Below, piece after piece: positions 3,183-64,000 of a DNA stretch of 64,000 nt (position 1 is the stretch's first letter; each line of letters begins with the position of its first letter). The stretch lies in the NCBI RefSeq assembly GCF_056712565.1, contig NZ_CM160072.1; one strand, 5' to 3'. A model generated the notes under the pieces. The model was not told the DNA's origin and searched no databases. It saw nothing but the letters and a program-made list of their open reading frames with translations. Both the position numbers and the translations under genes were made by a program.

Positions 3183-6573
<3,391 letters not shown>

Positions 6574-62959: not shown

Positions 62960-63042
62960 AGACCACGTCAAAATAAGAAGAGGGAAGACAACATTAGCAA
63001 GACTGTGTACATTTGTACACAATTGCAGAGAGAGGAAATGAC

Positions 63043-63579
63043 ATGCGTCGCGCTAACGATCCGCAACGGCGAGAAAAAATTATCCAGGCCACGCTGGAGG
63101 CGGTGAAACTTTACGGAATACATGCTGTTACACACCGCAAAATTGCTACCCTTGCCGGGGTGCCGTTGGGATCGATGACCTACTATTTTTCAGGAATTGA
63201 TGAGTTGTTGCTGGAGGCGTTCAGCCGTTTTACTGAGATCATGTCCCGGCAATATCAGGCATTTTTTAGCGATGTTAGTGATGCTCCAGGCGCATGCCAG
63301 GCTATCACCGATATGATCTACAGCTCACAGGTCGCAACGCCGGATAATATGGAGCTGATGTACCAGCTCTACGCGCTGGCTAGCCGAAAACCGCTCTTAA
63401 AAACGGTAATGCAAAACTGGATGCAGCGCAGTCAACAAACGCTCGAACAATGGTTTGAACCCGGAACCGCCCGCGCGCTTGATGCGTTTATTGAGGGAAT
63501 GACGCTGCATTTTGTCACCGACCGTAAGCCGCTATCACGCGAGGAGATTTTGAGGATGGTTGAGAGGATTGCTGGGTAG
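63043..63579 (+). CDS. rcdA: TetR-family transcriptional regulator RcdA/YbjK (178 aa)
   Basis: Start trimmed to [20 protein letters not shown]; TetR HTH. Confidence 0.9.
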
Positions 63580-63627
63580 TAGATAAATTTCAGGCAACAA
63601 AAAAACCATTTATGTAAACGGGTTAAT

Positions 63628-63665
63628 GAAAACAATAAGTTAGATTAAAAACAATAAGTTAGGTT
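63628..63665. repeat. Tandem direct repeat (2 x ~18 bp) between rcdA and the integrase stop
   Basis: aaaacaataagttagatt followed directly by aaaaacaataagttaggtt; AT-rich. Confidence 0.45.
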
Positions 63666-63683
63666 GGTGGTCAGTGGTGGTTA

Positions 63684-64000
63684 TTACGGGGTAATGCCAA
63701 CCGCTGCCGCCACTTTGTCGCCACTTGGCAGCGTTGCCAGAGGATTGAAACGGAGCGCCGTTTCCAGATGATCCGGTGCCAGATGTGCGTAACGCATAGT
63801 CATTTTTATATCGTGGTGTCCGAGAATTTTTTGTAAGGCCAGAATGTTTCCACCCGACATCATGAAGTGCGCCGCAAACGTATGGCGCAGAACGTGTGTG
63901 AGTTGACCGCGAGGGAGCACGATAGACGTTTTTTCCATCACGGATAAAAATTGAAAATAGCAGTCTGTGAAGAAATTGAACCCATCAAGCGCCATGATCT
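63684..64000 (-). CDS. Phage-type tyrosine recombinase (integrase), C-terminal catalytic part only; gene continues beyond the window end
   Basis: Minus-strand translation ...LTHVLRHTFAAHFMMSGGNILALQKILGHHDIKMTMRYAHLAPDHLETALRFNPL... carries the conserved HxxR box and the RY(A)H tyrosine nucleophile motif of the integrase family; it resembles P2-family integrases (from memory, unverified). Confidence 0.8.
   Translation of the reverse strand, partial: IMALDGFNFFTDCYFQFLSVMEKTSIVLPRGQLTHVLRHTFAAHFMMSGGNILALQKILGHHDIKMTMRYAHLAPDHLETALRFNPLATLPSGDKVAAAVGITP

Follow-up and report, generated by a model that had tools for sequence, protein, structure and literature searches.

An attachment site of a 186-type prophage between rcdA and ybjL

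The window, by which we mean the whole 64,000-nucleotide stretch of DNA analysed here, is a segment of the E. coli chromosome carrying deoR, ybjG, mdfA, ybjH, ybjI, ybjJ and rcdA. Near its right end, the rcdA stop codon (63577-63579) is followed by a 26-bp core sequence, an AT-rich tandem repeat and, on the minus strand, the 3' part of a tyrosine integrase gene (int) whose stop codon lies at 63684-63686 (Table 1). A first-pass annotation of this DNA had placed the repeat between the integrase stop and rcdA, and the coordinates of both stop codons agree with that placement. When positions 63400-64000 were used as a query, 5,422 complete genomes matched, 1,062 of them along the full length. In the other 4,360 genomes, which have an empty site, homology to the window ends at ~63609, and in the empty-site locus (L002) rcdA is followed directly by ybjL. 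The first-pass annotation had named identical repeats at this locus in strains lacking the integrase as a finding that would count against its reading; in these genomes the repeats are absent.

Strain K56-43-un differs from the window at a single base in 601 and carries, between rcdA and ybjL, a complete prophage of ~34-35 kb with int, cI, a Cox-like gene, cII, fil, P2-type structural genes and, last, ogr. The sequence TAAATTTCAGGCAACAAAAAACCCAT is found at both ends of this prophage and once in the empty site, and is therefore the common core. The attR lies outside the window and was viewed only in the near-identical K56-43-un prophage. With the core duplicated at the prophage ends and single in the empty site, int adjacent to it, and arm repeats on both arms, the locus is the attL of a 186-type prophage of the P2 family that has integrated between rcdA and ybjL. 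The DNA to the right of the core, including the repeat, is the P' arm of the phage. In Klebsiella phage KP12 and Escherichia phage ESSI2_ev129, the latter only ~75% identical, the P arm, core and P' arm are contiguous, constituting attP. The 94-bp P' spacer is present in 1,135 of 5,426 complete E. coli genomes.

A P2-like prophage of E. coli HS directly adjoins rcdA (Phollow methods). This prophage is PhiECO1, and the integration site given for PhiECO2, PhiECO3 (CFT073) and PhiSEN1 is the same; all four have a 186-type integrase and a cI/cII switch (PMC3448106). Because the E. coli HS prophage adjoins rcdA and the PhiECO phages and PhiSEN1 have this integration site in common, we infer that the prophage of the window falls in the PhiECO1/E. 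coli HS group.

Table 1 Features of the attL region, in window coordinates
Feature	Position	Strand	Sequence	Remarks
attL common core	63584-63609	.	TAAATTTCAGGCAACAAAAAA(A/C)CCAT	From comparison of attL (L001), attR (L003) and empty attB (L002)
Inverted repeat	63603-63624	-	AACC(C)ATTTA-tg-TAAACGGGTT	Spans the core/P' junction; the T-run of the core is next on the minus strand
Repeat unit 1, IHF-like core (putative H'1)	63629-63646; core 63630-63642	+	AAACAATAAGTTA (core)	78 bp before the arm motif
Repeat unit 2, IHF-like core (putative H'2)	63648-63665; core 63649-63661	+	AAACAATAAGTTA (core)	59 bp before the arm motif
G-rich direct repeats	63666-63692	+	GGTGGT (63666), GGTGGT (63676), GGGGT (63688)	Spacing 10-12 bp; read from the sequence
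Tyrosine integrase gene, 3' part	63684-64000	-		Runs past the window end
Arm-type sites P'1 and P'2	63705-63726	+	TGCCGCCACTT, TGTCGCCACTT	Period 11; inside the last int codons; match the 186-type consensus

The window carries A in place of C at 63605, inside the core (AAAAAAACCAT, not AAAAAACCCAT). This change accounts for the one difference from K56-43-un and, across the 41 core copies fetched, is found nowhere else. Transferred to the window, the crossover of phage 186 falls at 63602-63608, in the rightmost part of the core, and by analogy position 63605 would sit within the predicted crossover region. The mismatch could impair excision if the C has been kept at attR.

Insertion of the phage takes place in the ybjL terminator hairpin (L002 1700-1745) and splits it; the hairpin is intact at attR. 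A further inverted repeat spans the junction of the core and the P' arm. The fold energy of this junction hairpin is -9.2 kcal/mol in L001, -9.4 in L004 and -10.1 in L006, and it falls to -5.0 kcal/mol in the window, the loss relative to L001 being due to the 63605 variant. When the window was scanned for terminators, the junction hairpin was not picked up. It is possible that this phage inverted repeat (AACCCGTTTAcaTAAATGGG, minus strand) terminates the int (lysogenic) transcript before rcdA, with the window carrying a weak version.

The cargo of these prophages is variable. K56-43-un has a KAP-family P-loop NTPase, a small ORF and a RES-family NAD+ phosphorylase (L001 28777-32572), a set of defence-like appearance. 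Between int and cI, vB_EcoM-813R9 and KP12 carry a 'chromosome segregation ATPase' (L005 4240-5916). Several phages with Klebsiella names (4LV2017, KP12 and the Kp48xx series) share 97-99% identity with this E. coli prophage over attP and int and have an identical core (L007 1-130; L008). Either these phages integrate at the same attB in Klebsiella, or they have been assigned to the wrong host.

Two AT-rich units repeat with a period of 19 bp

A repeat search returned a tandem direct repeat composed of AAAACAATAAGTTAGATT (63629-63646) and AAAACAATAAGTTAGGTT (63648-63665); the letters at 63628-63667 are gAAAACAATAAGTTAGATTaAAAACAATAAGTTAGGTTgg. The two units are identical at 17 of 18 positions (94%) and are separated by 19 bp from start to start. 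The tandem 18-bp repeat reported in the first-pass annotation at 63628-63665 is thus real, except that its start was placed one base early and its period is 19 bp, not 18. The exact stretch common to both units is the 15-mer AAAACAATAAGTTAG, which is the sole exact 15-mer to recur within 12-40 bp anywhere in the 64-kb window. No such recurrence of a 15-mer was observed in 100 first-order Markov simulations, and 12-mers in the same simulations gave a mean of 0.2 pairs. The 12-mer ACAATAAGTTAG has exact matches in the window at these two unit positions only. Tandem Repeats Finder, run on 63000-64000, did not report the repeat, because it consists of only two short copies, and an Rfam search of the same interval gave only a sub-threshold CRISPR-DR9 match, which we regard as noise. 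The repeat region has a G+C content of 32% and lies 20-56 bp away from the core.

The arm-type integrase sites lie beyond the repeat

The full-length homologue of the integrase in L001 has 350 amino acids, contains the Pfam domains Int_N and Phage_integrase, and is 56% identical to phage 186 Int. For 186, the arm-type consensus is YAYCGCCAYTY, with three sites to the left of the core and two to the right (GenBank U32222), and the 186-type arm consensus has been given as tgccGCCActt (Nilsson et al., PMC3448106). A direct repeat matching this consensus is located ~40 bases beyond the AT-rich repeat (Table 1). There is one copy of the arm motif CGCCAYTTTGTCGCCA in the window, and every attP examined has one copy per arm, both with the same orientation. 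The distance from the P to the P' motif is 183 bp in both intact attPs (for example, L008 1440-1461 and 1623-1644).

Three observations indicate that the arm motif is a DNA signal and not a by-product of int coding. The P-arm copy of the arm repeat lies directly after the ogr stop and is non-coding (L003 ~4788-4810, minus strand). In phage 186 the motif is outside int, with orf69 between them. In E. coli 89-3156 (L004), the motif is retained beside attL despite an ORF of 161 amino acids that separates it from int. This hypothetical ORF, a moron, lies between the P' arm-type sites and int at L004 6326-6811, and the 3' end of int differs in this locus. The int reading frame through the arm motif is identical in the window and ESSI2_ev129 (GDKVAAAV versus GDKMAAAV).

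IHF-like elements occupy two conserved positions in the P' arm

Both units of the AT-rich repeat contain AAACAAtaagTTA. Of the 9 positions that the IHF consensus WATCAANNNNTTR specifies, this sequence matches 8, and the mismatch in both units is the T of WATCAA. Taken on its own this agreement is weak evidence, one-mismatch matches not being rare in AT-rich DNA. We refer to the positions of units 1 and 2 as site 1 and site 2. In the sister lineages L004, L118 and L068, site 2 is AATCAATAAGTTA, a perfect consensus, and site 1 differs outside the consensus positions. The 20 bp upstream of unit 2 (63629-63648), which are unit 1, have A or T at 16 of 20 positions; the sequence upstream of unit 1 (gggttaatga) is less A/T-rich.

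Relatives were collected by scanning IMG/VR with the arm motif alone, so that a related integrase is common to all of them, and the ~120 loci obtained were clustered into 38 lineages. In the P' arms of these 38 lineages, matches to the IHF consensus with at most one mismatch fall at -79 to -77 relative to the arm motif in 9 lineages and at -59 to -58 in 6, against an overall count of 25 forward matches in 10,032 positions. In the P arms, matches on the opposite strand cluster at +36 after the arm motif (9 lineages). We then tabulated 17 P'-arm lineages, 186 included, several of which have unrelated cores. An element with at most one mismatch is present at -79 to -77 in 11 of the 17, and with up to two mismatches allowed, elements are present at both positions in every lineage except phiO18P, which has site 1 only. 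The spacing of the elements is 19-20 bp in all lineages but one (phiO18P, 18 bp).

The sequence logo over the 17 lineages reads aAAaCAAT.A.TTA, with 1.1-2.0 bits at the CAA and TT positions. Among the N positions of the consensus, the information is 0.3-0.5 bits at the second and fourth, but 1.1 bits at the first (T) and 1.4 bits at the third (A). These two positions are semi-conserved, and their conservation goes beyond the IHF consensus. It is formally possible that a second integrase-related or other conserved factor acts on the elements. In three lineages with only 75-91% identity, the core and the arm motif are separated by exactly 93 bp, a constancy that is expected if helical phasing matters.

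The likeness of the two units varies across these loci: they match at 17 of 18 positions in the window and at 18 of 18 in L005, and are far less alike in L004, L118 and L006. This pattern would fit a recent neutral duplication or conversion in an AT-rich spacer, and the low G+C content of the region would suit either such an event or non-specific binding of Fis, H-NS or HU. We consider an explanation of this kind unlikely. Homogenisation left the 93-bp spacer length unchanged, the enrichment at fixed positions across lineages is far above background, and diverged lineages already carry consensus-like elements at both positions, indicating that the sites predate the near-identity of the units. 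Since site 1 and site 2 of the sister lineages have diverged from each other and are still consensus-like, the near-identity in the window appears to result from recent homogenisation within its sub-lineage, not from the origin of the sites.

The repeat corresponds in position to the IHF footprint of phage 186

In the GenBank record of phage 186 (U32222), annotated IHF DNase I footprints flank the core on either side; five Apl operators and the arm sites are annotated as well. The P' footprint (U32222 21057-21086) extends from -72 to -43 relative to the arm motif and, when transferred to the window (offset 63178), covers 63636-63665, which is essentially the whole repeat. Site 2 of 186 is TATCATTGACATA at -59, and the core of unit 2 in the window occupies -59 to -47. 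The extent of the 186 P' footprint is that expected for IHF centred on site 2, and by analogy IHF would bind the window at the equivalent position. The first-pass annotation had suggested IHF/Fis-type attL architecture for the repeat; for IHF, the consensus match, the conserved position and the agreement with the 186 footprint speak in its favour. Taken together, the sequence comparisons make it probable that the two units, arranged in tandem in the P' arm of a 186-type, P2-family phage attachment site, are elements recognised by IHF (H'1 and H'2).

The two phages share the order of elements, namely the core, IHF, excisionase operators, two arm-type sites (CGCCAYTTTRTCGCCA in 186) and then int. 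They differ in the core, which is a tRNA-Ile 3' end in 186 and the rcdA-ybjL intergenic terminator region in the window, in the recombination directionality factor (RDF), which is Apl in 186 and a Cox-like protein here, and in the presence of orf69 between the arm sites and int of 186. Furthermore, the IHF-like elements of 186 are poorer matches to the consensus and dissimilar to each other, and a single P' footprint is annotated.

Haemophilus phage HP1 resembles the window in carrying the arm motif GCCACTTTGTCGCCA on its P arm (attP, L130 551-650). It has a single TAAACAATAACTTA element ~74 bp before the P' arm repeat, and differs in having only this one element, in its tRNA-Leu core and in its P' spacing; its attP is annotated as a block only. 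Haemophilus phages thus also have an IHF-like element at the position of site 1. In the attP of lambda, the IHF site H' lies between the core and the tandem P' arm-type sites and is needed to fold the arm onto the core. Unlike the window, lambda has one H' site and not a pair, its Xis and Fis sites are on the P arm, and its arm-type consensus and integrase N-domain are different. A point against the IHF reading is that the published IHF site of P2 itself is on the other arm.

The excisionase operators are better sought downstream of the repeat

RDF operators in the P2 family are direct repeats ~10-11 bp apart, and they are found between the early promoters as well (PMC7498355). A Cox-like excisionase/repressor of the phage (L001 22428-22649) is assigned to phrog_575 (PHROGs, E = 6e-31); a Pfam search with this protein returned no family, and 186 Apl is weakly similar to it. 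These properties raise the question of whether the AT-rich units are operators at which a Cox/Apl-like excisionase bends the int-proximal arm and drives excision. Direct repeats are the usual form of RDF sites, and in 186 such sites lie between the core and the arm-type sites of the same arm, as the units do here. However, the units are spaced by 19 bp and not by 10-11 bp, and they have no counterpart in the cI-cox switch: between cI and cox, the sequence closest to the unit differs from it at 5 of 12 positions in L001 and at 4 of 12 in L004, and a comparison of the P' arm with the switch for a shared periodic motif gave nothing convincing. The element is also conserved in 186, despite the weakly similar RDF of that phage, and in lineages with unrelated cores. 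Conservation across different RDFs and cores fits a host factor.

The segment adjoining the repeat behaves differently. In the window, it contains G-rich direct repeats (Table 1), and the equivalent segment (-46 to -5) of other loci contains other motifs with a ~10-bp period, TTGCC in 186 and L114 and CTGTT in L107 and L128. The neighbouring segment, and not the units, thus carries lineage-specific ~10-bp repeats. In 186, the five Apl operators occupy the segment equivalent to 63666-63692; mapped onto the window they extend over 63654-63700, beginning downstream of the element position. A search for the GGTGGT-type motif in the switch region gave no match. We therefore regard an excisionase-operator function of the units themselves as quite improbable. 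The segment downstream of them is a better candidate for binding of the Cox-like protein, and 63666-63692 is a candidate, if speculative, operator region.

It is very improbable that the units are arm-type sites for the N-terminal domain of the integrase, as the first-pass annotation had offered: like the 186-type arm repeats (tgccGCCActt) they are direct repeats near int on the P' arm, the place where such sites are expected, but they contain no CGCCA core and do not resemble the 186-type arm consensus, they are not found on both arms (in the 290 bp left of the core, on the P arm, the best match has 4 mismatches in 12 positions and is an inverted IHF-like element; the first-pass annotation had advised looking for further copies at the other end of the element), they vary at two of the four N positions of the IHF consensus, in loci whose arm motif hardly varies at all, and the pair TGCCGCCACTT/TGTCGCCACTT, also present on the P arm of every attP, is a perfect candidate for this role at 63705-63726.

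A possible role of the paired elements in folding the P' arm

If the units are IHF elements, the order of sites in attL would be the core (63584-63609), the IHF-like pair (63630-63661), a variable segment (~63666-63700) that probably holds the excisionase operators, the arm-type Int sites (63705-63726) and int. By analogy with lambda and 186, IHF may bind the units and would then bend the P' arm sharply. The bent arm would allow the integrase, with its N-terminal domains placed on the arm-type sites, to reach the core with its catalytic domains. The resulting intasome would carry out integration when assembled on attP and, together with the Cox-like excisionase, excision when assembled on attL. 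The inverted IHF site in the P arm would act likewise on the other side.

A single IHF footprint centred on the int-proximal unit would cover almost exactly the whole repeat. IHF footprints are ~30-35 bp long and would overlap at a spacing of 19 bp, and for this reason simultaneous occupation of both units is doubtful. One possibility is that unit 1 mainly supplies the A/T-rich 5' half of the footprint at site 2; the other is that the units are alternative positions. The appearance of an 18-bp repeat would then reflect two neighbouring sites for the same protein that are nearly identical in this sub-lineage.

We give little credence to an elaboration of the second possibility, in which the pair provides alternative IHF positions for two folds of the P' arm, site 2 being used for integration and site 1 once the excisionase fills its operators. 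The 186 excisionase operators overlap the site-2 footprint by 12 bp. If this proposal were true, the position of IHF would be part of the directionality switch in 186-type phages.

Significance

Read as tandem IHF elements, the repeat is most likely ordinary attachment-site architecture of the standard heterobivalent tyrosine-integrase type, with a close parallel in phage 186, and knowledge of how such attachment sites work is unchanged by it. A search of the accessible literature for tandem IHF sites in attPs of the 186 or HP1 type found none. We likewise found no earlier description of the IHF elements of the PhiECO1-type group: Nilsson et al. (2011), who catalogued cores and arm repeats, make no mention of IHF (PMC3448106). 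The family-wide pairing of putative elements at -78 and -59 is a small new observation. These results provide a testable map of attL, and hence of attP, in a prophage that is among the commonest of E. coli, comprising the core, a putative IHF pair, probable excisionase operators and the arm sites. Such a map should be useful for annotating prophage ends, for engineering integration modules of the E. coli HS/KP12 type, and for comparing the geometry of 186-type intasomes.
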